Below the pieces are notes generated by a model, which worked only from the letters and a program-made list of their open reading frames with translations, was not told where the DNA came from and ran no database searches. A stretch of 64,000 bases of DNA, taken from the IMG/VR virus record IMGVR_UViG_2772190661_000001, positions 1 to 64,000 of that record. One strand, given 5' to 3'. Each line of letters opens with the position of its first letter. Position 1 is the first letter of the stretch. This document shows, piece after piece, positions 3,125 through 60,901 of the stretch. Origin of the DNA: a virus. Taxonomy: Duplodnaviria; Caudoviricetes. Made by a program: the position numbers and the translations under genes.

Positions 3125-4039
3125 TCAGGCTTCGATCGCGGCGGGCCGCTTGGCGAGGAGAGCGCGGATCCTCTCCTTGCCGACGGCGGTGACGTAGAGG
3201 GTGGTGCGGTACTGGCCGTTGTGGTGGCGCGGCGCGTTCGGCTGGTCCTTAACGGAGAACCAGGTGGCGTAGCCGGCGCGCGCGAGCCACTGCCACTCGT
3301 CGACCATGGCCCGCCTCGACTTCGACCAGCGCTTCTCGACGAACCGCCGGTAGATGAGGCCGTGGCCTTCGAGCCAGGTGCGGAGGTCGCCCTCGGTCAT
3401 GCCGATCTGCTGGGCGAAGATCCGGACGAGGGTGGTGTCGCCGGTCGGGTTGACGAAGTTGTCGACGAACGCGGCCTTCGGGCGGGTCGTCGCCAGCTCG
3501 CGGGCTTGAATGGCGTTCGCCAGCTCCAGCGCCTGGTGCTCCTTGGCGAGTTCGAGCATCTGGCCGAGTACGTCCACGGCCACTGCGGTGTCCCGGAAGT
3601 CGGGCACAGCCGGAGGCGCTGGCGGCGGGACGACCAGTCGTGCGGCCCTCTCCGCCTCGATGAGGTAGGTGCGCACGTCCACGGCAACGGGGCTGTCGCG
3701 CAGGAGCATGCCGACCCGAAGGACCGCTGGGCGCGGGAACAGCGCCAAGCTCGGGCTACGTGTGGCGATTCCACTGAGCTCCTTAAGACGGCTCAGTGGC
3801 TGGCCGGTAATCACCTGGTAGCCGCTGATCTCCAGCTCGGCGCGGTGGTCGACAACCACGGAGCGCACGGTTTTGATCGGGACCTCGTAGTACGCGGCAA
3901 CCATCTCGGTCGTGGCGTGGACGTCGTCCGGCAGGAGAACGAGCGCTTTGACCTTGTCGAGGGCGTCGACCCGGCCGGCGTAGCGGTCCCGGTCGTGGCG
4001 GTTGTCGACGAGGGTGTCGGGCTGACGGGTGATCTGCAT
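3125..4039 (-). CDS. phage antirepressor, KilAC (ANT) C-terminal domain
   Basis: C-term PKAAFVDNF...AQQIGM..DLRTWL..HGLIY...TTLYVTAVGKERI; N-term DNA-binding-like domain (VAAYYEV...LFPRPAVLRVGMLLRDS). Confidence 0.85.
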   Translation of the reverse strand: MQITRQPDTLVDNRHDRDRYAGRVDALDKVKALVLLPDDVHATTEMVAAYYEVPIKTVRSVVVDHRAELEISGYQVITGQPLSRLKELSGIATRSPSLALFPRPAVLRVGMLLRDSPVAVDVRTYLIEAERAARLVVPPPAPPAVPDFRDTAVAVDVLGQMLELAKEHQALELANAIQARELATTRPKAAFVDNFVNPTGDTTLVRIFAQQIGMTEGDLRTWLEGHGLIYRRFVEKRWSKSRRAMVDEWQWLARAGYATWFSVKDQPNAPRHHNGQYRTTLYVTAVGKERIRALLAKRPAAIEA

Positions 4040-14994: not shown

Positions 14995-16344
14995 TCACGC
15001 CGCCTCCTGTTCGATTCGGCAGGCCCGGCACAGCACGTGCCCGGCCGCCACGTCCGCCGGTGTGATGTGGGCGCGATCCTGCTGGCACCACGTCCGCTCA
15101 TCCGGCGTGGACATGTCCACATCGTCCGGGTCCGCGCCCGACAGGAGCGCCAGCGTGGCCCGGCCCGTTCCGGTGATGTCGTGCAGGCGCGAGTTCGACC
15201 GGCCCGGCACGACCAGCACGTAGCCGCGCGACACCGCGTCCGCGAGCGCCTTCCGCACGTCGTTGCGGCCGACGCCCTGGACCTTCAGCTTCTTCTCGAT
15301 CGCGTCCGCCGACTGACCCTGGTTGTCGCGCACGTAGACCAGCAGCTTCGCCAGCGCCTCGGACTGCTCGGTCGCCTTCCGCCCGCCCTCGACAAACGTC
15401 AGGTGCCGAGTCCGGGAGTCGTGCAGCAGTCGGCCCTCGCGCACGTCCACATCACGGCCGTACGCGGAGAAGAACCGCGGCGAGTCCGGCGCCGGCTCGG
15501 CATTCGGGTCCTTCTCGTCGCGCTGGCGCAGAATCCGCCAGTTCACGTCCGGCCAGCCGATCAGCCGCGACGCGCCACGCGACCGCTCGGCCCCGTGACC
15601 CATGTGGTGGATCAGCAGCACCTCGTCCACGTCCGCCTCGGCGGCGGCCGAGGTGAGCCCGTCGAGGAGCTGCCCGACCTCGGTGTTGTCGTTCTCGGAG
15701 ATGCCGAGCGCGGACAGGACCGGCGACAGGCAGTCGATGATCCAGACCTTGACGTTGGCGGCCTTCAAGCGCTCGACCCACTTCGCGCGGATCTCGACGT
15801 CCCGCAGGTCGAACCGGGCAGCCTTGCCTCGCTCGGTCCACACAGCCACGCAGTGCTTGTTGATGATGCCCTGGTCGGCCAGCCACCTCTTGACCCCGCG
15901 GCGTGGCATCTCGAAGTCGAGGACCGCGACGGTTTCTTCGTCGCGGACTGGCTCGACCGGGTAGATGCCGAGAAAGGGGGCGCCGTCGACCAGGACCCGG
16001 ACCGTGTTCCCGGTCGTGGTGGTCTTGCCCGCCTTCGCGCCGGCGGCGAGGAGCACATGCCCGCCGCGCGGCCAGACACCCTGGATCCGCCACGCCTCGG
16101 TCTCATCCTCCTCGTCGAGGAGCGTGGTAAGCAGGGTCGGCTCGGGGACCTCGACGGTCTTGCCGTCCTCGGAGTCGAGGAGGCGGCGGGCGTCGCGGCG
16201 GGCACGCTGCCGCATGACCTCGTCGTCGAGGTACGCCCGGTAGCGCTCGGCCTTGAGGGTTTCCCGCATGTCGTCGGACTCGTCGTCGGCGAGGGTCGCC
16301 GCCCAGGACGCTTCGAGGTCGTCGACATCCGGTGGGTTCGTCAC
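14995..16344 (-). CDS. AAA_25/RepA-like replicative helicase with C-terminal wHTH
   Basis: Walker A AGAKAGKTT, Walker B WIIDCLS, LLIHH..GAERSRGAS motif; GTGA-coupled start. Confidence 0.85.
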   Translation of the reverse strand: MTNPPDVDDLEASWAATLADDESDDMRETLKAERYRAYLDDEVMRQRARRDARRLLDSEDGKTVEVPEPTLLTTLLDEEDETEAWRIQGVWPRGGHVLLAAGAKAGKTTTTGNTVRVLVDGAPFLGIYPVEPVRDEETVAVLDFEMPRRGVKRWLADQGIINKHCVAVWTERGKAARFDLRDVEIRAKWVERLKAANVKVWIIDCLSPVLSALGISENDNTEVGQLLDGLTSAAAEADVDEVLLIHHMGHGAERSRGASRLIGWPDVNWRILRQRDEKDPNAEPAPDSPRFFSAYGRDVDVREGRLLHDSRTRHLTFVEGGRKATEQSEALAKLLVYVRDNQGQSADAIEKKLKVQGVGRNDVRKALADAVSRGYVLVVPGRSNSRLHDITGTGRATLALLSGADPDDVDMSTPDERTWCQQDRAHITPADVAAGHVLCRACRIEQEAA

Positions 16345-16853
16345 GCCGCAGTCCGTCGCTCGGAGGCTCGCTGGGTGCGGCGCAGCCAGGCGCACGCCGA
16401 TCCGACCGGCATGCCGGTCTCCCAGTCGACGGGGCCGCCGCGGTAGCGATAGCCGGCGGGGAGGCCGAGCCGTGCGTTGAGGCGTTCCCGGGCCGCCTCA
16501 GACTCGGCCGCGCGCAGGGCGACCTGCTCGGCGTGAAGCGCTCGGACGGTGTCGGCGCTGAGGTCGGCGCAGCGCACCTCAGCGCAGCCGATCAGGTGGG
16601 TGGCGGTCCGCCCGGACTCGTAGGCGAGGTGCATGAGGTAGGCGACCTGCTCGCGGGTGAACGTGTCCTGCGTGGCGAGCGCGTCGACGGCCTGGAGAGT
16701 GACACCCGCAGTGAGGACCGTCTGCGCGGATGGCGCGTTTGGGCTGTCGCGTTCCTTGACGTTCTGGCAAGCTGTCGGCATGTGATGGCCTTCCAAGGTC
16801 ATGGACAGCGCCGGGGTCTCGACACCCTGGCGCTGTTTCTTTTCCGGGGTCAT
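16341..16853 (-). CDS. hypothetical protein
   Basis: Coupled between Xis and helicase; start uncertain. Confidence 0.65.
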   Translation of the reverse strand: MTPEKKQRQGVETPALSMTLEGHHMPTACQNVKERDSPNAPSAQTVLTAGVTLQAVDALATQDTFTREQVAYLMHLAYESGRTATHLIGCAEVRCADLSADTVRALHAEQVALRAAESEAARERLNARLGLPAGYRYRGGPVDWETGMPVGSACAWLRRTQRASERRTAA

Positions 16854-17035
16854 GCGGCTGCTGTGCCTTGCCGCTCCCGGTCGACGTACGCGCGCAGGTC
16901 GGTGCCCTCGAACCGGAGACGGCCGCCCAGCTTGAACGGGGTCAGCTGGCCCGTTTTGATCAGCTCGAACAGTCGGGTCTTGCCGATCCGTAGGTACGTC
17001 TGCGCTTCGCGCGAGGTGTAGTACGACGAGGTCAA
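16850..17035 (-). CDS. excisionase/HTH_17 DNA-binding protein
   Basis: YYTSREAQTYLRIGKTRLFELIKTGQL.PFKLGGRLRF; TTG start with GGAGG RBS. Confidence 0.85.
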   Translation of the reverse strand: MTSSYYTSREAQTYLRIGKTRLFELIKTGQLTPFKLGGRLRFEGTDLRAYVDRERQGTAAA

Positions 17036-17045
17036 TGCCAACCTC

Positions 17046-17123
17046 CAAGAGTTGGGCGTATTTCTTGCCGACCCCATCTGATCACGGTCCGGAACAGTTC
17101 GCAAGAGTTCGGCCCGGTTCTTG
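17046..17123. promoter_or_regulatory. two CAAGA-N12-TCTTG operators in divergent region
   Basis: 17046-17067 and 17102-17123. Confidence 0.65.
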
Positions 17124-18333: not shown

Positions 18334-18618
18334 ATGCGTCAGTGGATCGTCATCGGCCTATCCGTTGTGGGTGGCGGGCTCGAACTCGCCGCCGTCATTC
18401 TCGCCTGGACCGGCGCACGCCGCGAATATCTGAAGGCCCAGAACGGCCCCGGCGAGCAGGAGCGGTTCACCTACGCGGACCTGAAACGCACGCCGCGCAT
18501 CATCCGCATCCACATCGCCGCCTCCACCTGGCGCGGAGCAACGACAGCTCTGATCCTGCTCGGCGCCGGCGTCATTCTCAGCACCGCGGCGAACGTAGTC
18601 GGCGCGATCGGCAGCTGA
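18334..18618 (+). CDS. two-TM membrane protein
   Basis: Two hydrophobic helices; probably leaderless. Confidence 0.7.
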   Translation: MRQWIVIGLSVVGGGLELAAVILAWTGARREYLKAQNGPGEQERFTYADLKRTPRIIRIHIAASTWRGATTALILLGAGVILSTAANVVGAIGS

Positions 18619-18622
18619 CCGC

Positions 18623-19039
18623 CTATCGGTCCGCGGCCGCTGTCGGCCCGTAGACGATGCCCAGGCCGGGGACCTCCTGGGCGACGCGGGCGACGACTGC
18701 CCGATGCCAGGCCGCGGGCAGGTCTACGCCGGGATGCGCGGCCCGGTAGTCGGCGTCGGTGCGGTAGACGATGACGGCCGGGTCGGGCACGTCGGCCAGC
18801 GCTTTCACGATGCCGTCGACGAATTCGGCGGTGCGCTGTTCCAGGTCTTCAACGGCGAGCCGGACCCCGTCCGGGACCTCGTATTTGCCATGCTCCCAGT
18901 GGCGGACGGTCCGGCCGGACACGCCGAGGTGCGCGGCGAGGGCGTCGCCGGTGAGGCCGAGGTGTTCGCGGACGACGCGGAGTTCGGCGTCGGTCATGCG
19001 TTCGTCGTCGGGCATTCCGGGCGGGTCGGCGTAGTCCAC
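18623..19039 (-). CDS. Aca2/YdiL-like (DUF1870) XRE-HTH protein
   Basis: MTDAELRVVREHLGLT..ALA..LGVS.RTVRHWE.G..EVPDGV plus C-terminal VYRTDADY...WHRAVVARV. Confidence 0.75.
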   Translation of the reverse strand: MDYADPPGMPDDERMTDAELRVVREHLGLTGDALAAHLGVSGRTVRHWEHGKYEVPDGVRLAVEDLEQRTAEFVDGIVKALADVPDPAVIVYRTDADYRAAHPGVDLPAAWHRAVVARVAQEVPGLGIVYGPTAAADR

Positions 19040-19109
19040 GGTGGCTCCTGGATATGGGTCAGCCCCGGCTGGTCGGCCGGGGCTGGACGGGTGGTTCGGG
19101 TGGGGGCGG

Positions 19110-19280
19110 TCAGCCGCGGTAGACGCCGTCGTCGTCGGTGTTGGTGAGCAGGTCGCGGAGGTGGGTCTCGGTGGTGTCGTCGAGCTCGGCGGTCTGCGGG
19201 GTGTCGTTGAGGTCGGCGAGGGCCTGGACCTCGTGGGGCTGCATGTTGTATTCGGCGGCGAGGCTGGCGATGGTGGTCAT
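19110..19280 (-). CDS. small acidic protein, anti-CRISPR/anti-defence candidate
   Basis: 56 aa, 12 D/E versus 2 R; GAAGGA RBS; directly upstream of the Aca2-like gene. Confidence 0.7.
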   Translation of the reverse strand: MTTIASLAAEYNMQPHEVQALADLNDTPQTAELDDTTETHLRDLLTNTDDDGVYRG

Positions 19281-19330
19281 GTCCGGTTCCTTCCGGCGGT
19301 GGCTGGGGCTGTTCCCCTGCCGACACCCCA

Positions 19331-19360
19331 AACGCTAGCTTCCTAAATTAGGAAGCGCAA
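19331..19360 (-). promoter_or_regulatory. housekeeping-type promoter with palindromic operator in the spacer
   Basis: TTGCGC-N17-TAGCGT; GCTTCCTAA-A-TTAGGAAGC perfect 9-bp inverted repeat at 19338-19356. Confidence 0.85.
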
Positions 19361-19446
19361 GCGACATCACTCCGAAGTGGCCAGAACGCGCAGACGCCCG
19401 CGGCCGTCACGGAGACGGCACAGCGGGCATCGGGCGCGAGCAGGAG

Positions 19447-19863
19447 TCAGTACCCGCCGGCGTCAATCAGCCACACCTGCCCACCGTTGGCGTGAACGTT
19501 GCCCGGGTTGAAGTCGGCGGCGCCTTCGAGAATCGGGTACGGGCGGGCCACGGATCCGTCGTCGGGCAGGTACGGCATCGCAACCACGGTGGCCGTCTCC
19601 TCGTCGCCGTAGACGGTCAGCGTCACCTCGAACAGGCTGACCTCGGGCGCGTGTCGGTGACCATCGGCGCGGAGCCGGGTCAGGGTGGCGACCTCGCGCC
19701 GGTTGGCGCCGTCGACGCCGACCTTGTAGACGGTGGTGCCGTCGGCGGACAGGTAGACGGTGCGGTGGGCGCCCTGGCCGATCTGCTCGACGCCGTCCGG
19801 GAGGTCGAGGTCCAGGTAGTGGGCGGAGGCGATCACAGTCGCTTCGGCGCGGGTGCCGGGCAT
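19447..19863 (-). CDS. miniature protein-kinase-fold protein
   Basis: IGQGAHRTVY, VYK, NRRE, DFNPGNV, LIDAG; TAATG-coupled to upstream gene. Confidence 0.8.
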   Translation of the reverse strand: MPGTRAEATVIASAHYLDLDLPDGVEQIGQGAHRTVYLSADGTTVYKVGVDGANRREVATLTRLRADGHRHAPEVSLFEVTLTVYGDEETATVVAMPYLPDDGSVARPYPILEGAADFNPGNVHANGGQVWLIDAGGY

Positions 19864-20111
19864 TAGGCGGCGTCCTTGGGCGACTTGCGGCGGGCTCGGA
19901 CCGCCTCACGCGCTTCGGGTTTGAGTGCCTGGCGGACGGTCTCGCGGCTGTAGCCGGTGACGCGGATGATGTCGACCTGCCGCATGCCCTCGTCGGCGGC
20001 GCGCTGGATCTCGGCGTCGCGGGTGTCGCGGCGCTGCGTTTCGAGTCGCGCGATGTGCTCGCCGGCTTGGTCGTAGGCGGCTACGACGGCGCGGAGTTCG
20101 TCTTCTGTCAC
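19863..20111 (-). CDS. small HTH repressor
   Basis: RDAEIQRAADEGMRQVDIIRVTGYSRETVRQAL; leaderless (TTGCTA-N17-CAAGAT). Confidence 0.8.
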   Translation of the reverse strand: MTEDELRAVVAAYDQAGEHIARLETQRRDTRDAEIQRAADEGMRQVDIIRVTGYSRETVRQALKPEAREAVRARRKSPKDAA

Positions 20112-36647: not shown

Positions 36648-38630
36648 CTACGAGGAATCCCCCACCCAGCGCACCTCCAGCCGCGGACGACCACGGCCAA
36701 GGCTCACCTTCTCCAGCGTGTACTCCCCCGTAGCCACCAGCTCGCCAACCCACCCATCGATGTCATCGGCCTTCTCGTTGTTGCTGAACACCTGCTTGCC
36801 AATCTCCGTCCGGCCAGCCCGCCGGCCTTCACAGCCGTCCACGTACTCCTTGATCCGACCCGCATTGCGCGACACCCCTACCACCCGTCCCGCCGCCAGC
36901 AGATGCTCGATCGCCCACTCCCCAATCGCGATCGCGTCCCGCATCGTCGACTCCTCAATTCGATCGTCCGGGGTCATCCCGGCACCCAGATGCAACAGGG
37001 CTGCGACACGCAGAACTCGGGCCACGTGCTTGCCCGCCCACCCACGCACCTGACACAGGTCGCCGTCTCGCGACGGATCCATGCGCGGCTCGAGGACGTT
37101 CTGATAGTCAAGGTGCAGCTTCCACGCGCCACGGGTCAGGTCGATGACCGCCGACTCCGCCTCGATCGCCGCCTCCTCGGCTTGCCGGTCAACCAGCGCG
37201 TCATAGCCGACCAAGCTCTCCAGCAGCTCCGCCCACCAGCGCTTCAACCGCCGGCTCTGCGGCTCAGCCGGCACGTCGTCGATAAAGACCGACTCCCGCC
37301 CCTCACGCTTGCCGACCAGGTCGCCGGGCAACGAAACGAGAAAGCGGTTGATGAAGCCCGTCTCCTGCATGAGAGCGTTCTGCAGCATCTCGGCCACCAG
37401 TAGCGGCTGCGGCGAGATCGCCAGCGTCAGTGCGGCCCGACCGATCTGCCCGGCCTCGCGGGTGATCCGGGTCGGCTTGTACGGGGCGCAGTCGTAGCCC
37501 TTGAGGACAATCCCGAGGTTCGCCGTTCGGCCCGAGTACTGTCCACCCAGATTCCGCAGCAGCGTCCCCTCGTCGTCGATGACCGCGCCCGCGCCGAGGT
37601 TCGTCGACATGCGGTCGGCGAGCGCTTCCGGGCTGGTATCGCCGTCGAGCTCGACGACCGGCGCCGGTGGCGGGCTCTTCGCCAGGTCCTCGGCCTGCTG
37701 GCTGAGTCGTCGCGCGCGAGCCTTCAGGCCCTCTTTCTCCTCCAGGTCGGTCGTCACCGCCTTGCCTTTCGCTAGGACGTCCTCGATCTCGGCGGCGAGT
37801 CGCAGCTGCTCGCCCTCCACCCACTTTTCGTGCTGCTCGCGCAGCGTCCGGTTCGCCAGCCACAGCCCGTCGCGGAGTTCGGTGACCGGCGGCGACTTTG
37901 CGCTGCTGGACTCCATGCCGACCATCACGTACAGGTTCGTCGGCTGAATGAAGTCGTGGTCGCGGCGGACCAGAATGCGCGGGCCGGTCACGCCGGACAT
38001 GACACCGAGCATCATCAGGGCCGGCAGGTCCACCGGGACCTGCTTGCGCTCGGCCAAGTCGACCACGTACTCGCGCATCATCGGCGGCAGGTGCTCCACC
38101 GGAAACCGGCGGGCATGCCCGTGCCCTGCCGTGAGCGGCGTCGCTCCGGATCCTCGCTTGGCTCCGGGGGCCGGCTCGCCAATTTCTCCCTGGGCGTGCA
38201 GCCGCGCGGCGTCCGCGAGTGCAGCGGCGAGCGCTTCAGCGTTCCCGGATTTGGCTGCCTGCTGGACGCGGATGCCGACTTCCTCCGCGCGCCTCGTCCG
38301 GGCGGTGTCGGCAACACTTCGAGCATGCCAGGTGGCCGACGCGACCGTGGGCACCTCGGCGACGCAGCGCAGCAGGTAGGGGGCTCCACCGACACGCAGC
38401 AGGTCACCTGACCTGTGGAGCGTGTCGCCGACCGCCACTGCATCGGTGGGAGCTCCGTCAGAGCGGTTGTTGAGGACCGCTCTGAAGATCTCGCCGTGGA
38501 TCGGGCGCGCGAAGTCGTCGAAGGTCAGAATCGCCGCGAGGCTCGGAACACAGTCCGACTGCAGCATCATCGCGCCGAGCACGATTCTCTCGGACGCCTC
38601 CGGGTCTAAGCCGGTTGCGTTGCCGCTCAT
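36648..38630 (-). CDS. DnaB N-terminal domain + DUF3987 (YfjI-like) replication protein
   Basis: ASERIVLGAMM...DDF.RP.HGEIF (DnaB_N); FP.E.LP, NLY...GMESSSAKS, IDDEG, GFINRFL. Confidence 0.85.
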   Translation of the reverse strand: MSGNATGLDPEASERIVLGAMMLQSDCVPSLAAILTFDDFARPIHGEIFRAVLNNRSDGAPTDAVAVGDTLHRSGDLLRVGGAPYLLRCVAEVPTVASATWHARSVADTARTRRAEEVGIRVQQAAKSGNAEALAAALADAARLHAQGEIGEPAPGAKRGSGATPLTAGHGHARRFPVEHLPPMMREYVVDLAERKQVPVDLPALMMLGVMSGVTGPRILVRRDHDFIQPTNLYVMVGMESSSAKSPPVTELRDGLWLANRTLREQHEKWVEGEQLRLAAEIEDVLAKGKAVTTDLEEKEGLKARARRLSQQAEDLAKSPPPAPVVELDGDTSPEALADRMSTNLGAGAVIDDEGTLLRNLGGQYSGRTANLGIVLKGYDCAPYKPTRITREAGQIGRAALTLAISPQPLLVAEMLQNALMQETGFINRFLVSLPGDLVGKREGRESVFIDDVPAEPQSRRLKRWWAELLESLVGYDALVDRQAEEAAIEAESAVIDLTRGAWKLHLDYQNVLEPRMDPSRDGDLCQVRGWAGKHVARVLRVAALLHLGAGMTPDDRIEESTMRDAIAIGEWAIEHLLAAGRVVGVSRNAGRIKEYVDGCEGRRAGRTEIGKQVFSNNEKADDIDGWVGELVATGEYTLEKVSLGRGRPRLEVRWVGDSS

Positions 38631-52896: not shown

Positions 52897-55776
52897 TCAG
52901 AGCGGCAGGTAGGCGGGGTCGGCCACGTCAACCGGCTCCAGAGCGAAGTGCGCGACCGCAGCGGTCCCGTCGACCCCGCGCGCGACCAGCGAGATCGTCT
53001 GCACGCCGGAGACCGGCAGCGCCGCCGACGTCGCCGTGACGAGCTCGTCACCGATCCGCAACTGCATCGGATAGTCGGCCGGGTCCGTCGTCCAGTACGC
53101 GCCCACATTGGAGACGCGGGCGGACATCCCCGACGACGTCATCCCCGACGCCAACTGCGACCCGTCCGTGGCCAGGCGGATGTCGGAGTCGAGAACAGCC
53201 ACATCCCACGGGGAGTAGGTGCTGCAGTTGGCCTTCACCTGCCACGACCGCGGCGCCAGGGTCTCCGAATAGCCGTCCAAGACCTGCGAGATGATCCCCG
53301 GCGTAGCCACGGACGGGGCGTTGATCCGGTCGATGCGGCAGCCGATGTCCGCGGCCAGCCACGCCGAGATCAGGCCAGGGTTCGACGACAGGTCGATCGG
53401 CAGATCGGGGTAGCGGACCTCGTCGATCGTGCCCAGCCGGACGTCCCACGACGCGTGCAGAACGGCCTGGGAGTCCGTGGCCACGTTCGCCTGCCGGCTG
53501 TTCGTGTAGCGGCCGTTCGCGTCGATGTGCGCCTTGTCCTCGTACCGGCCCTCAGACCCGGACGGGCGCGTCACCGTCGCCTCGTTGACCACACCCTCGT
53601 CGTCCCAGACCGGCCGGAGCACATCCGCCTGCTGGCCGCCCTCCACCCGGTACGTGGCCAAGTCGATGACCATCGCCGGGGTCAGGTTGTAGCGGGCACC
53701 GCGCGGCAGATAGGCGAGCGCGAAAGCCTTCTCGTACCTGATCCCGCCGTCGGTCTCGGCCGCATCCTTGAGCAGGTCCATCAGTGCGGCGTCCGCCTGC
53801 GCGCCCATCGGCGTCCCCACGCCGGCGTCCGTCACCGCGGTGATCGCCACCGGCACCCCGGCCTCCGCGCACAGGCGCAGAATCCGGCGGTGCGCGGGCT
53901 CACCCGCCCACGCCTGCCACACGGTGGCTTTCAGGCCGGTCAGCGGGTCCGTCGTCGAGTCCGATCCGATCGGGATGTCCTTGGTGTCCCACACCTGGAC
54001 GTGCCCGGCACCCCACTGCTTGCCGAGGTCGTTGCTCGCGGCGTTGTTGACGACCCCGGCGGGGTTGACCGTGACCTGCCCGATCCGGCCCAGCGTGCCC
54101 ACGATCGTCGACGGCACAAAACCGGCGGTCGACGAGTCGCCCAGCCACAGCCTGACGTTGACGTTGCCGCCGGACTGGACCGCGTCGACCTGGTACTGGG
54201 CCAGGCCGGACGTGCCGAACGTCAGGATCTCGCCGGTCTTCGTCCCGTCGGCCGTGAAATACTCCAAGATCAGGTTGCCGTCGGAGCGGGCCGTGACCAG
54301 CCACCGCGCCCACGAGCCCGTCACGAACCGGATCTCGTACAGCGGAATATCAGCCCCGAACCCCGGGGCGAACACCGCGGCCAACGCACGGACCGCCCAC
54401 TCCACCGGCGACGACGTACCCCGCCGGACCGTGCCCGTCAGCCGCCCACCCGACGACATGTCCGCGATCGGGGCAGTCCCCCACCGGCGCGTCGACGGCA
54501 CCGGCGGCGGAGGCGTATACCCCGCCCAGCCGACCTTGAGACTGCCGCGCTGCATCGGAAAACTCTCGTCGACCGCGCTCGCACCGCGGGTCGCGTCCTG
54601 CCCGTCCTCCAAGGGCCAATAGCCGATCAACGGCTGACCGGACGCCCGATACCGCTCGGCCGCCGCCCGGATCGGCGAATACGCCGCCCGCTGGCCCCGC
54701 TGCAACCTGCGGGAGATCCCGGAGATCCGCACCTTGACCGTCGACCACGTGTACCCGCCCGTGGACGGCAGAAAGCCGGGCTGCCAGTCGTCAGCGAACC
54801 CGGCGAGCCTGGTCGAGTACGGGATGATCGACACGTTGTCCCAGGCAATCGCCGGGAACGTCGTCGACGTGTCCGTGATCCCCGACCGGACCCCGTGCCC
54901 CACACCCACCGCGGTGATCGCCGTATCCGTCGCCGCGACCATCCACCCCGACGGCTCCGGATCCGTACCCGTCCACAACCGCAGACCGAGCTCACCATCA
55001 CCACACCGGCCACGCATGTGCAACGGCATCCCGACCGTATAGATGATCCCGGTCAGCACCTCCGCCAGCACCGCGTCCACGTTCCCGACCCGGCGGATAA
55101 TCTGCGCGATCACCTGCCCCGTCGACGAGATGATCCGCGCCCGCATCTGGTAGTAGTCCACATACGTCGCCGAAATCCGCGACGCGAAACCCGCATGCAC
55201 CGCCCCGTTGTCCGGCAGACCGGACAGCGTCACCGTCCCGAACAGCTCGACCTCGGGAGCCAGCACCTGCAGGTGCGAAATCCGATACCCGCCCGCCGCC
55301 TGGACCCGATGCAGGCCCTGGGTGCCGTTGAGGGCGAAGTCCGTGCTGGTCGTATACGGAACGGTCGCAGCCCAGAACCAGGGCATGCCCGACGACGACG
55401 TCCCCCACCGGATGTCCCCCGCCGGCGGCCGGTCAAAGGTGTCCTCGGCGTCCGCGACGTGCGGGTAGACGCGAAGCCTGGCCGGGACCGCGCGGGTGAT
55501 CGGATACGCGCCGGGCCGCTTTGGGGTCAGCTTTCCGTCGTCGTTGACGAGGGTGACCGTGCCCGACTGTGCCTGCGCCTCCGCGGCGCCCGCGGACCGG
55601 CCGCGCTGGATCGTGATCGGGTCCGCGAGCAGTCGCGGTGTCAGGTCCGTCCACGACCACGTGTGCGGCAGTTGCGTGAGGTCGGCGCCGAACGCGACCT
55701 CCAGGGCGGCATCCAGCTCGGCGTCGGGAAACGGGCTGCCGGTCCTCGACGTGGCCGGCGTGACGAACAGCGGCAT
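52897..55776 (-). CDS. large tail tip/baseplate protein (LamG-like region)
   Basis: WTDLT...ITIQRGR...LVN.DG.LTP; GYWPLEDG; RILRLCAEAG; N..TV.R. Confidence 0.85.
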   Translation of the reverse strand: MPLFVTPATSRTGSPFPDAELDAALEVAFGADLTQLPHTWSWTDLTPRLLADPITIQRGRSAGAAEAQAQSGTVTLVNDDGKLTPKRPGAYPITRAVPARLRVYPHVADAEDTFDRPPAGDIRWGTSSSGMPWFWAATVPYTTSTDFALNGTQGLHRVQAAGGYRISHLQVLAPEVELFGTVTLSGLPDNGAVHAGFASRISATYVDYYQMRARIISSTGQVIAQIIRRVGNVDAVLAEVLTGIIYTVGMPLHMRGRCGDGELGLRLWTGTDPEPSGWMVAATDTAITAVGVGHGVRSGITDTSTTFPAIAWDNVSIIPYSTRLAGFADDWQPGFLPSTGGYTWSTVKVRISGISRRLQRGQRAAYSPIRAAAERYRASGQPLIGYWPLEDGQDATRGASAVDESFPMQRGSLKVGWAGYTPPPPVPSTRRWGTAPIADMSSGGRLTGTVRRGTSSPVEWAVRALAAVFAPGFGADIPLYEIRFVTGSWARWLVTARSDGNLILEYFTADGTKTGEILTFGTSGLAQYQVDAVQSGGNVNVRLWLGDSSTAGFVPSTIVGTLGRIGQVTVNPAGVVNNAASNDLGKQWGAGHVQVWDTKDIPIGSDSTTDPLTGLKATVWQAWAGEPAHRRILRLCAEAGVPVAITAVTDAGVGTPMGAQADAALMDLLKDAAETDGGIRYEKAFALAYLPRGARYNLTPAMVIDLATYRVEGGQQADVLRPVWDDEGVVNEATVTRPSGSEGRYEDKAHIDANGRYTNSRQANVATDSQAVLHASWDVRLGTIDEVRYPDLPIDLSSNPGLISAWLAADIGCRIDRINAPSVATPGIISQVLDGYSETLAPRSWQVKANCSTYSPWDVAVLDSDIRLATDGSQLASGMTSSGMSARVSNVGAYWTTDPADYPMQLRIGDELVTATSAALPVSGVQTISLVARGVDGTAAVAHFALEPVDVADPAYLPL

Positions 55777-57562: not shown

Positions 57563-60500
57563 CTACCTCCGTCGTCCGTCGCCGAGCGCGACCTGCGCGT
57601 CTCCGCCATAGCGGATCGCGACCATGCCCCGGATCGCGTCTAGGATCTGGTCGCCCGTCGCATTCCGGGCCCACGCCAGCTCCGGGCTCGGCGGCGCCTG
57701 CAGGGTCATGCCGGCCGAGAACGCGGCCTCGGCCTGGGCGTAGATGCCGTGCGGGTCGGCGACAATCGACGACGCGATGTCGTCCGAGATGCCGCCCAGT
57801 TCCGAGCCGAGCAGCCCACGCCGCGAGGCGATGCCCTCGATCAGGCCGTCCATGATGGCCGCGCCCTCGGGGATGAGGAGCTTGCGGTCTTTCTCGATCG
57901 GACCCTTGTTGTTCTTGATGAAGGTGGCGACGCCGCCGAGGTAGCCGCCCAGCGTGGAGAGCATCGAGCCGATACCCGAAATCAGGCCCGACACGATCGC
58001 ACGCCCGGCGCTGTAGAGCAGGTTCCCGGTTGCTCCGAGCCCGTTCGCGACGCGGGTGCGCAGCCCGGACGCGGTCGACTGCAGCGATCCGGCCAGGCCG
58101 GAGATCCCGGATTGGAGCCCGGAGACGAAGTCCCGGCCCTTCTGCACCAGCGTGCTGCCGGCGTTCCCGACCGCGTCCCGGACCTTCCCCGGGATCTCGC
58201 GGGCCTTCGACGACAGCGACCCGAACAGGGACCCGATCCCGTTGATCAGGCCCTGGATGAGGTCCTTGCCGATCTGCATGAACACGGTCGACGGCGAGGC
58301 GATCCCGAGCCCGGACTTGACCTTGCCGACCAGGCTGTTCGGGCCCGACCACAGCAGGCTCGCCGCCGCCGACGCCAGCAGCGACCCGAGGGCTTTCGCG
58401 CCCTCCACGACACCCTCGACGATCGCCCCGCCGACCGACTTGGTCCTCTCCTTGACCGTCGTGCCGATCCCGGACCAGTCGATCTCGCCGATCCACTTGC
58501 CGATGTTGTAGAGCAACTCGTACTGGCCGAGGAAGGTGGCGTCGTCGCCGGGATCAAGGGAGCTGAAGAAGTTCGAGATCGACTCGGCCTTGCCGACCAG
58601 GTCGCCGACCGACTTCGCAAACTCTTTGAAGTCCTCGATGTAGCCGCGGATCCGCTCCTGCGTCTCCGGATCCTTTAGAGACGTCGCCAAGTCGTCCATG
58701 AACGCCTTGAACTGCTTGAAGGGCGACTCCTCGTCCTTCTGCTCCGACCCGGTCAGGATCTCAAAGAACGAGCCGACGATCGAACCGGCATCCTTAGCGA
58801 TGTCCTTCAAATCGTTGAAGTAGCCGGTCGCGTCCTGGAAGAACTGCTCCAGGCGGCCGTCCTCCGCCATCGAGTTGATTTTGTCGGAGAACTTCTGCAG
58901 CCCGTTCGCGATCGACGACCCGACCGCGTCCAGGAACGGCTTCGCCTCCGCCGCCAGCGACGCGAACGCCTCCACCAGCGGGCCGGTGACAACCTTGCCG
59001 ATCTTCTCGAAGTTCGACCGGATCGTCTCCGCGCCAGTGATCAGATCGTCGATGACCTGTGGCTTCTGCAACGTCTGGCTGAGGTTCTTGAACAGGCCGT
59101 TGAACGTGTCCGCGTACGAGCCGAGAGACTCCTCCAGCCGCGGCAGCCACGCATTCGCCAGATTCGTGATCTCCACGCCGAGGCCGGCGAACAACCGGTT
59201 CTGCACACCCAGGCGCAGCTCCTCGAACGCCGGCCCCAACGCCTTGATCGCATCGACGAACTTCTGCGCCTCAGGCGCCAGCTTGATCGTGTCGTCCAGG
59301 CCGCCGCCGCCACCCCCGCCACCGGCGGACGCGGCACGCTCCCTCGCCTGCGCCAGCGCATCCTGCGCCGAGATCAGCGAGTCATACGACGCCTTGACGC
59401 CATCGTTCGCGCTGGCCAGCCTGTCCTGGGCGTCGATGATCCCGTTCGCGGCATCCTCGACGGCCTTACGCGCGTCGGACTGCTCCTTCAGCGCGGCAAC
59501 AACCTCTTCGGAGCCCTCGATGCCCTTGCGGTTCGCCTCCCCGGACTCCTCGCCCAGATCCTCGACCGCATCCTTGGCGTTCTCGACCGCGAGCTTCGCC
59601 CGCTCGTAGCGGGACTCCGCCTCCTCGATCAGCTCCGGGTTGAACGTCGTCTTGGCCGCCGCCAGGTCCCGCTGCGCGTTCCGTAGCTCCCGCTCCGCGT
59701 CGCTCTGGTCCAGAACCGCGCCGCGTAGCGAGCGGCCCAAATCCTCGAACCGCTCCTGCGCCTGCTTCCGCGCCCGATCGACGATCCCCTGCAGGCGCGC
59801 CTCGGCGGCCAGCGCGTCCGTGTACGAACGGTTCGCCTCGGCCAGGCCGCGCTGCGCCTGCTGCAAACCACGCGACGCCGCCGCGATCCCGCGACGGGCC
59901 GCCTCCACCCCGCGCTCAGCCGCGGCGACACGGCGAGCACGGTCCTCGGCGGACTCGCCACCACCGCCACCCGAACCGCCGCCGCCGACCTTCTTTTTGA
60001 ACGCGTCGCCGATGCCCGAGAAGCCGAGCTTCAGCGTTGCGAAACCCGCGCCGATACCGGCAATCAGGCCCGGCAGCGACGCCAGCACGCCCGCGAGCGT
60101 GTAGACCAGCGGCACCGCGGCGCTAGCCGCGAAACCGATCCCGGCGACGATCCCGGCCGCGATCGCCGCCACACCAGCAGCCGACCCGACAGCGCCCAGC
60201 GACCTGGCCACCCCGCCGACGCTGCCAACCACATCCGACGCCACCCCAGCCAGCTGCGAGAGAGCAGCCGAGATCGCGCTCGTCTTTGGCGGGTCGACCT
60301 CGACCTTCGCCTTCACCCGCGCCGACGCTGCCGCGACCAGCGCCCGCAGCTTCAACTCGAACTCCCGGCGGCCCTCAGGGTCGACCGGGATCTTCGCCTT
60401 CAACTGCTGCTGAATCGCGCCCAGCTCGGCCCCGAGCTCCTGCCGGAAACCGGCCGTGTCCGCGTTGACCGGCACCTTCGCGTTCACGGTCTTCGCCAGC

Positions 60501-60901
60501 CCGGCCACCTGCACGCCCAGCTCACGCCGAAACGCGTCGAAGACCGGGTCGACGACGACCGGGACCGTGACCGGTTCCGGCTTCGGAACCTTCGGCAGCT
60601 TCTCCGGCTTCGGCTCCGAAGACCTCGGCGCCCGAGGCGCCCGCGGGGCAGGCTGGCCGCCGGACGGTTCGGCCGGCACCTTCATCCGGGCCTTGCCGAG
60701 CTGCTCCTTGAGCCTGCTCGTGTCGAGCACCGGCGTGACGGTGACCGTCAGCTTCTCGCCGTTGATCGCCTTCTGCAGGACCGACTTGAAATCGACGCCC
60801 TTGAACGCACCCTCGATCTCGCGCTTCAGGGACTTCGCGAGCTTCCGGGTGTCCGCGACGACCTCGACGCTGACTTGCCCCACGGAAATCGGAGCGGTCA
60901 C
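57563..60901 (-). CDS. tape measure protein
   Basis: 1112 aa Ala/Gly-rich helical; GIASPS.VF..IG..LIQGL; follows tail chaperones. Confidence 0.9.
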   Translation of the reverse strand: MTAPISVGQVSVEVVADTRKLAKSLKREIEGAFKGVDFKSVLQKAINGEKLTVTVTPVLDTSRLKEQLGKARMKVPAEPSGGQPAPRAPRAPRSSEPKPEKLPKVPKPEPVTVPVVVDPVFDAFRRELGVQVAGLAKTVNAKVPVNADTAGFRQELGAELGAIQQQLKAKIPVDPEGRREFELKLRALVAAASARVKAKVEVDPPKTSAISAALSQLAGVASDVVGSVGGVARSLGAVGSAAGVAAIAAGIVAGIGFAASAAVPLVYTLAGVLASLPGLIAGIGAGFATLKLGFSGIGDAFKKKVGGGGSGGGGGESAEDRARRVAAAERGVEAARRGIAAASRGLQQAQRGLAEANRSYTDALAAEARLQGIVDRARKQAQERFEDLGRSLRGAVLDQSDAERELRNAQRDLAAAKTTFNPELIEEAESRYERAKLAVENAKDAVEDLGEESGEANRKGIEGSEEVVAALKEQSDARKAVEDAANGIIDAQDRLASANDGVKASYDSLISAQDALAQARERAASAGGGGGGGGLDDTIKLAPEAQKFVDAIKALGPAFEELRLGVQNRLFAGLGVEITNLANAWLPRLEESLGSYADTFNGLFKNLSQTLQKPQVIDDLITGAETIRSNFEKIGKVVTGPLVEAFASLAAEAKPFLDAVGSSIANGLQKFSDKINSMAEDGRLEQFFQDATGYFNDLKDIAKDAGSIVGSFFEILTGSEQKDEESPFKQFKAFMDDLATSLKDPETQERIRGYIEDFKEFAKSVGDLVGKAESISNFFSSLDPGDDATFLGQYELLYNIGKWIGEIDWSGIGTTVKERTKSVGGAIVEGVVEGAKALGSLLASAAASLLWSGPNSLVGKVKSGLGIASPSTVFMQIGKDLIQGLINGIGSLFGSLSSKAREIPGKVRDAVGNAGSTLVQKGRDFVSGLQSGISGLAGSLQSTASGLRTRVANGLGATGNLLYSAGRAIVSGLISGIGSMLSTLGGYLGGVATFIKNNKGPIEKDRKLLIPEGAAIMDGLIEGIASRRGLLGSELGGISDDIASSIVADPHGIYAQAEAAFSAGMTLQAPPSPELAWARNATGDQILDAIRGMVAIRYGGDAQVALGDGRRR

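Follow-up and report, generated by a model that had tools for sequence, protein, structure and literature searches.

A probable Aca2-type autoregulated operon with an exchangeable acidic cargo gene in a mobile-element region of an actinomycete genome

Aca2 was defined beside acrIF genes as a repressor acting at the promoter of acr operons (PMC6765145), and its repression acts on the DNA as well as on the RNA, including the mRNA leader (PMC13551039). The acrIF8-aca2 operon of Pectobacterium phage ZF40 has provided a set of Aca2 structures (7B5J, 7VJO-7VJQ, 8W35; PMC6765145, PMC8434428, PMC8633003), and Arg30, Tyr34, and Arg39 of ZF40 Aca2 read the DNA (PMC8633003). RNA motifs designated "actino-" and "proteo-" are described upstream of acr-aca2 operons (Birkholz 2024 Nature, as cited in PMC13551039), and Aca-regulated operons are reported to be enriched in anti-defence candidates, many of which are unannotated (PMC13551039). 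Here a locus of related layout is described from a stretch of 64,000 nucleotides (hereafter the window; positions 1 to 64,000 of IMG/VR record IMGVR_UViG_2772190661_000001, Duplodnaviria; Caudoviricetes), which comes from a mobile-element region of a large actinomycete genome (11 Mb). On the minus strand, a promoter with a palindromic operator is followed by a structured leader, an open reading frame (ORF) for a 56-aa acidic protein (hereafter the cargo), a GC-rich hairpin, and the gene for an Aca2-like helix-turn-helix (HTH) regulator (Table 1). The operon type and its regulatory principle are already published, while the cargo family is uncharacterised.

Table 1. Positions of the operon elements and of phage-type genes in the window
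Feature	Position	Strand	Remarks
aca2-like gene	18623..19039	-	138-aa HTH repressor (Aca2/YdiL family); GTG start, AGGAG ribosome site
Intergenic GC hairpin	19058..19088	-	no U-tract; between cargo stop and aca2 ribosome site
Cargo gene	19110..19280	-	56-aa acidic protein; ATG at 19280, stop at 19110
Leader hairpin 2	19283..19296	-	CCGG / AAGGAA / CCGG; in predicted fold
Leader hairpin 1	19301..19321	-	GGC-A-GGGG / AACAG / CCCC-A-GCC; in minimum-energy and centroid folds
-10 hexamer TAGCGT	19332..19337	-	TAnnnT type; TA..(G)T kept directly after the operator in alignment A3
Operator	19338..19356		perfect inverted repeat GCTTCCTAA-A-TTAGGAAGC, 9+9 bp; fills the 17-nt promoter spacer
-35 hexamer TTGCGC	19355..19360	-	from sequence; TTG and fixed spacing to operator kept in 46 aligned loci
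KilAC antirepressor	3125-4039		phage-type gene
Primase/helicase-like ATPase	14995-16395		close to operon
Excisionase-type HTH	16850-17104		close to operon
Tape measure	57563-60901		1112 aa; phage-type gene

The regulator belongs to the Aca2 family. An earlier sequence-only reading of the window had recognised in it an XRE-HTH protein of Aca2/YdiL type and had proposed a profile search as the check. In this search, PF08965 (Aca2_YdiL, formerly DUF1870) scored 26.5 bits, above its cut-off (23.8), with residues 15-103 aligned on profile positions 1-92 of 118, and HTH_31 was matched with 31.9 bits. A tblastn search of the regulator against phage records gave a direct match to gp30 of ZF40, and by BLASTP the two proteins are 33% identical over 118 residues (E 7e-16); this gp30 is Aca2, and the gene preceding it is acrIF8, both being annotated as hypothetical proteins in the record. 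A profile of 24 actinobacterial homologues matched the solved Aca2 proteins (8W35, 7VJO, 7B5J) with E values of 7e-12 to 1e-10. The AlphaFold2 (AF2) model of the regulator, with a predicted local distance difference test score (pLDDT) of 84, shows a two-domain fold composed of an N-terminal HTH and a C-terminal alpha/beta dimerisation domain, with helices and two strands that follow one another as they do in Aca2, and is superposed on 7B5J with a template modelling score (TM) of 0.80 and a root-mean-square deviation (rmsd) of 2.5 A. The top ten Foldseek matches were all Aca2, YdiL, or SO3848, aligned over 117-138 columns with target-normalised TM of 0.53-0.80, whereas ordinary HTH proteins were aligned with the model over about 56 columns only.

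The similarity to ZF40 thus extends over nearly the full length of the regulator, and in both systems the cargo precedes aca2, the promoter carries an inverted repeat, and the 5' leader is structured. Among the DNA-reading residues, Arg30 of ZF40 corresponds to R43 of the window regulator and is invariant in the family, whereas Tyr34 and Arg39 are replaced by H47 and K52, respectively. Both replacements are conservative and invariant within the actinobacterial group, and may be compatible with a different operator. The operator is different in the two systems, with TTCCTA/TAGGAA in the window against the GTTC half-site of ZF40. Compared with its ZF40 counterpart, the window regulator is extended by 14 residues at the N-terminus and is also longer at the C-terminus, and the spacer between cargo and aca2 is 70 nt long with a strong GC hairpin, compared with about 10 nt in ZF40. 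The two systems also differ in their cargo, that of the window having no relation to AcrIF8, and in the host, here an actinomycete.

Homologous aca2-type loci were found on many IMG/VR contigs of 27-133 kb, and one is located in Streptomyces phage Gilgamesh. The regulator of this phage, gp87, is 61% identical to that of the window and is preceded by TTCCAAATTTGGAA, a leader, and a gene for a 107-aa acidic protein (gp86). The leader core GGGGAACAGCCCC is also present in Thermobifida phage P1312, of which the regulator gene is annotated as a longer protein; the regulators of P1312 and of Mycobacterium phage Typha are only about 40% identical to that of the window. The cargo proteins of Gilgamesh, P1312, and Typha differ from the window cargo.

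The promoter that had been read from the sequence, TTGCGC-N17-TAGCGT, is indeed found on the minus strand, and a perfect palindrome of 9+9 bp lies in its spacer. A single occurrence of the palindrome was counted in the window, compared with 0.01 expected when up to three mismatches are allowed, and a single one in the whole 11-Mb genome, and a search of this genome with the operator pattern for further Aca2-controlled operons gave no second site. For comparison of the upstream region, relatives were drawn from species genomes, IMG/VR contigs, metagenome contigs, and GenBank phages, and 46 of the 49 distinct promoter-leader sequences obtained were aligned (alignment A3). The aligned elements follow in the order TTGnnn, palindrome, TAnnnT, GGUC-A-GGGG/loop/CCCC-A-GACC, CCGG-AAGGAa-CCGG, and ATG. 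The operator core, TTCC(T)A-N-T(A)GGAA, was found 84-1270 nt upstream of the aca2-like gene in 63 loci, so that the expected operator inside the promoter is borne out by sequence, by its single copy in the genome, and by the conservation of its core. The 19-bp palindrome is presumed to be the binding site of a dimer of the Aca2-like protein.

Between the promoter and the cargo ORF lies a leader of about 45 nt, which is predicted to form two hairpins; the loop of hairpin 2 carries the Shine-Dalgarno sequence, 2 nt from the ATG. Among the 46 sequences, hairpin 1 is 97% paired with two pairs changed on both sides, and hairpin 2 is 100% paired with compensatory changes in two of its four pairs (UCGG..CCGA, CUGG..CCAG). 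Over the whole leader alignment, 98% of the cells are paired and 4 of the 12 pairs are changed on both sides; these values were reached in none of 500 shuffles, and slid controls were 56-63% paired. Support for the predicted structure comes mainly from conservation, together with a few compensatory changes. Rfam holds no family for the leader, and only a chance match to ALIL (E 0.33) was obtained. The loop sequence AAGGAAC of the leader is similar to the operator half-site TAGGAAG, and the Aca2-like protein could read both. The two-hairpin consensus is presumed to be the published actino-motif, to which it is likened by description only: as cited in PMC13551039, the operons with this motif share with the window an actinobacterial Aca2 homologue, a promoter DNA motif, and an RNA motif just past the predicted transcription start, with the position of the start codon conserved.

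The GC hairpin between the two genes, expected at about 19060-19085, is also present, with a centroid energy of -24.1 kcal/mol and z of -3.4 against shuffles. In 77 distinct loci an equivalent hairpin precedes the start of aca2 by 15-30 nt, with a median energy of -26 kcal/mol; the stem sequences are unrelated among these loci, and no U-run follows them. The E. coli-type promoter/terminator scan of 18500-19500 called nothing, and by its T-run rule the hairpin is not terminator-like. To see if the hairpin moves along with the type of cargo, mean local scores between hairpins were compared; they were 15.4 for loci with the same cargo and 13.5 for loci with different cargo, a difference too small for any claim. 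The hairpin most likely acts as an attenuator or as a message-stabilising 3' structure that would set the ratio of cargo to repressor. The earlier hint that it represents the leader RNA of Aca2 type was not upheld; the conserved leader hairpins are located instead upstream of the small ORF.

The gene content between leader and aca2 is highly variable. One to three genes are present in this slot per locus, and a total of 18 sub-families were distinguished in the 63 loci. The survey of genes upstream of regulator homologues, proposed in the sequence-only reading, gave the result which that reading had listed in favour of an acr locus, a variable slot, and the opposite of an invariant partner. 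The slot proteins are frequently mosaics of a few acidic modules, most of them with 17-24% D/E and 3-5% K/R, and a few are non-acidic, among them an HTH_17 (excisionase-like) protein. Among 35 pairs of loci with Aca2 proteins 85-95% identical, the cargo differs in 23, and it also differs in one pair at 97% identity. The nearest relatives of the window regulator, at 81% identity, are Salinispora protein P0004 and that of IMG/VR locus L023; the latter locus carries a different cargo sub-family, and the window cargo is unshared by the nearest relatives where the slot is readable. In two metagenomic loci, L090 (1372-1463) and L091 (2411-2495), the operator is located 84-91 nt before aca2 and the slot is empty, and these appear from sequence to be solitary autoregulated aca2 genes. 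A typical actinobacterial aca2 module of high GC, 72% identical, was also observed on a 2.7-kb contig (L016) in a metagenome-assembled genome of Fimbriiglobus, a planctomycete; mis-binning is more likely than transfer in this case.

The very acidic 56-aa ORF with 12 D/E and 2 R is present as described earlier: it contains eight D, four E, two R, and no K, giving a net charge of about -10. This composition agrees with the strongly acidic character of DNA mimics of the Ocr/ArdA type. The ORF represents a real gene, because its GC content at third codon positions (GC3) is 0.95 and 48 representative homologues exist. As to the start, the ATG behind GGAAGGA is conserved, and an alternative TTG upstream would overlap the promoter. 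A simple homologue search with the ORF returned only itself, and the family surfaced in an exhaustive HMMER profile search, which gave the 48 representatives (E<=1e-3), mostly of 50-90 aa, with the consensus M-x-T-I-x-x-L-A-A-E-x-x-M-Q-P-Y-E-L-A-A-F-x-D-L ... E-L-D-A-x-T-E ... R. The family is rare and was not found when 400 other genomes from the phylum were sampled. Neither Pfam nor PHROG gave a family for the cargo, no match was obtained by tblastn against 50,697 phage records, a second scan at the level of sub-families gave nothing new, and the ESM Atlas returned scores of 0.81-0.83 to unnamed clusters without any lead.

The AF2 model of the cargo, made from 45 sequences, has a pLDDT of 94.4 with helices at 4-10, 15-21, and 35-47, and the cargo is thus predicted to be a three-helix HTH-like domain. 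Foldseek gave no hit at E<=1e-3 in PDB or BFVD. By VIA the cargo model came nearest to the IF2 N-terminal domain, with Z 6.1, and then to pSK1 Par, with Z 5.5 and an rmsd of 1.4 A. RacA and an HTH protein of an Arthrobacter phage were other weak structural neighbours, which like pSK1 Par are small domains of HTH type, none of the four being significant. DNA binding by the cargo is unlikely, because the net charge is about -10 and no basic residue is present in the helix matching the recognition helix.

A decayed second copy of the cargo and aca2 pair was observed in the same genome on contig C67 (L009:1143-1662, minus strand), where an 80-aa cargo paralogue (54% identical) precedes an aca2-like gene that is interrupted by a frameshift. 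This copy is without the TTCCTA..TAGGAA operator, and a 352-aa ORF just upstream (L009 2072-3130) has the look of an insertion sequence transposase.

The genomic context of cargo homologues was read for eight viral contigs. On these IMG/VR contigs, some of them of low GC, the cargo domain is encoded first after the promoter, and the promoters carry palindromes of other sequence (TTGCCGCACGTGCGGCAA and CCTGCGCAGG, among others). Downstream of the domain comes either a small HTH gene of a different type or a terminator, and no aca2 is present within 2.5 kb. Fusions were also found. In the 187-aa P0125, the cargo domain is joined in frame to an Aca2-like protein (PF08965 on residues 58-152), as read at the protein level for a single representative; in P0124 it is joined to slot module A, and in P0140, P0143, P0158, and P0131 to other C-terminal HTH segments. 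In their layout, the C-terminal HTH segments of P0140, P0143, and P0158 look like an 82-aa coiled-coil and HTH protein encoded immediately upstream of the operon (19863-20111, minus strand). In P0135, a phage protein of 1573 aa (phrog_2922, function unknown), the domain occupies residues 555-606 between Gly/Arg-rich linkers on either side. A 1525-aa SNF2 helicase and methyltransferase protein (P0138) was considered as a further relative and was rejected, since none of its five weak stretches is significant singly.

An Acr domain fused to its own HTH regulator is known for AcrIF24 (PMC9638941), and the fusion in P0125 is of the same kind, whereas cargo and regulator are separate genes in the window. 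To be combined with several regulators and to be fused to one's own regulator, as read here for the cargo domain, are habits of known Acr proteins (for AcrIF24, PMC9638941). Acidic proteins of 270-277 aa starting with the cargo domain were observed in L135, L136, and L137; their promoters (L135:976-1105, L136:1957-2086, L137:2129-2258) carry other palindromes and a GGGG..CCCC leader hairpin, and within the first 120 nt after these genes GGGGGTTCGACTCCCC is found, which resembles a tRNA 3' half and is possibly an attachment-site remnant. AcrIIA1 is another protein in which an Acr domain is fused to its own HTH regulator.

Based on these elements, the following order of events is proposed. Upon entry or induction, when the repressor is absent, the promoter would fire and the 56-aa cargo would be made, and read-through of the intergenic hairpin would then allow synthesis of the Aca2-like protein. 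The dimer of this protein would occupy the 19-bp palindrome in the spacer and shut off transcription. By analogy with ZF40 Aca2, the protein may also bind the two-hairpin leader, of which the second loop holds the ribosome site, and thereby block translation of the cargo. The GC hairpin between the genes would most likely attenuate read-through or stabilise the cargo message, leading to more cargo than repressor. The cargo itself, as one of many interchangeable and mostly acidic small slot proteins, would most likely bind and block a host protein early in infection.

The interpretation favoured here, with somewhat better than even confidence, treats the locus as an autoregulated accessory operon of the actinobacterial Aca2 type, of which the cargo most likely blocks a host protein, with a defence component as the leading candidate; an anti-defence role of whatever sort is given about an even chance for the cargo. 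A number of observations weigh against this interpretation. The promoter was not called by the E. coli-type consensus scan (18500-19500) and is weak by that consensus, its status resting on TTGnnn-N17-TAnnnT with the palindrome as conserved in the 46 aligned loci. Most of the leader pairs are invariant, and the fold energy of the leader alone is ordinary (z -1.4 against shuffles). Known acr genes lie upstream of only about 3% of the Aca2-like genes in bacterial genomes (PMC9410906). Pfam holds no family for any of ten slot representatives examined, and no significant match of the cargo model to an Acr or DNA-mimic fold was obtained by Foldseek or VIA. Acr families are, as a rule, highly diverse, and missing homology or a missing fold match is no ground for excluding an Acr. 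In the host genome, which is 100% complete by marker genes, Cas1 (PF01867) was not detected and nothing was over the cut-off for Cas3 (TIGR01587), and because of this an anti-CRISPR role would be without a target in this lysogen.

The last point bears on the proposal of the sequence-only reading that the cargo is a CRISPR inhibitor acting as a DNA mimic. Aca2 was defined beside acrIF genes (PMC6765145), the net charge of the cargo is about -10, and Acr-HTH fusions of AcrIF24 type are known (PMC9638941), to which the P0125 fusion may be added. Nothing, however, ties the 56-aa protein to CRISPR-Cas, and neither Cas1 nor a Cas3 over the cut-off was detected in the host genome; the family and fold searches showed no resemblance of the cargo to an Acr or DNA mimic already known, and its model, a three-helix HTH-like domain of 56 residues, is small for a DNA mimic and shows no recognised fold of an Acr or of such a mimic. 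An anti-CRISPR function as such is thus considered improbable, the combination with DNA mimicry is given an equally small chance, and both stand below a broader anti-defence or host-targeting role, which is more likely. The same regulation could also serve a cargo unrelated to defence, such as one for superinfection exclusion, a lysogeny-related moron, or a host take-over protein that inhibits host transcription, replication, or a nucleoid protein. That the slot also holds non-acidic proteins including HTH_17, that in fold the cargo comes near small DNA-binding domains (Z 5.5) as well as the N-terminal domain of IF2 (Z 6.1), and that most Aca2-like genes are not beside a known acr (PMC9410906) are all in agreement with this possibility, but rapid cargo turnover under a tight promoter and the prevalence of very acidic small proteins fit counter-defence best, as does the reported enrichment of anti-defence candidates in Aca-regulated operons (PMC13551039); such a cargo is therefore regarded as possible, though rather unlikely.

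Two further explanations concern the relation between cargo and regulator. The cargo could act on the regulator itself, tuning Aca2 in the role of a co-repressor or an anti-repressor, and not be an effector directed at the host, as might be suspected from the in-frame fusion with an Aca2-like protein (P0125), the fusions with HTH segments (P0140, P0143, P0158, P0131), and the HTH-like fold of the cargo. Most Aca2 loci of this type, however, are without the cargo domain and carry unrelated cargo, and the domain occurs where no aca2 is present within 2.5 kb, making this explanation quite doubtful. A toxin-antitoxin module, with an HTH antitoxin of HigA-like type and a small toxin, is suggested by weak profile matches between HigA2 antitoxins and the HTH region (E 1e-3) and by Pfam matches to YdaS and Xre antitoxins, all below their cut-offs. 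In full-length fold and sequence, however, the regulator is Aca2 and not HigA; instead of a fixed cognate toxin, the partner varies even between closely related loci and is missing from L090 and L091; and the partner in the window, an acidic three-helix domain of 56 aa, does not have the fold of a toxin. A module of this type is very improbable.

The mobile-element region that holds the operon is at least partly phage-derived, as phage-type genes such as those for the tape measure protein and the KilAC antirepressor are present in the window (Table 1). Immediately upstream of the operon, a 138-aa protein matching phrog_28435 is encoded (19447-19863, minus strand). At larger distances on the same strand, a 660-aa protein (36648-38630) has the N-terminal domain of DnaB (PF00772) fused with DUF3987 (PF13148), and a 959-aa protein (52897-55776), the gene of which adjoins that of the tape measure, matches phrog_5313 with E 3e-122 (family function unknown).

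Since the regulatory principle of the Aca2-type autoregulated operon is already published, the value lies in the list of cargo, with no new mechanism being involved. Defence systems are abundant in actinomycetes and limit both phage work and genetic manipulation, yet to our knowledge the phages of these bacteria have yielded almost no inhibitors of such systems. The conserved operator and leader provide a cheap bioinformatic beacon for a slot of fast-swapped small acidic genes that are candidate inhibitors, and the window cargo, being small, confidently folded, and a member of a traceable family, should be easy to test. As a tentative proposal, held at well below even confidence, the cargo domain may found a new family of phage effectors for counter-defence or host take-over, in which an HTH-shaped decoy that does not bind DNA would occupy a host protein and would be deployed free as an early product under various repressors, fused to its Aca2 repressor, or inside a very large phage protein. 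If this proposal is true, the large phage protein carrying the domain may travel with the virion, and the at least 18 slot families would represent a largely untapped anti-defence repertoire of actinobacteria.

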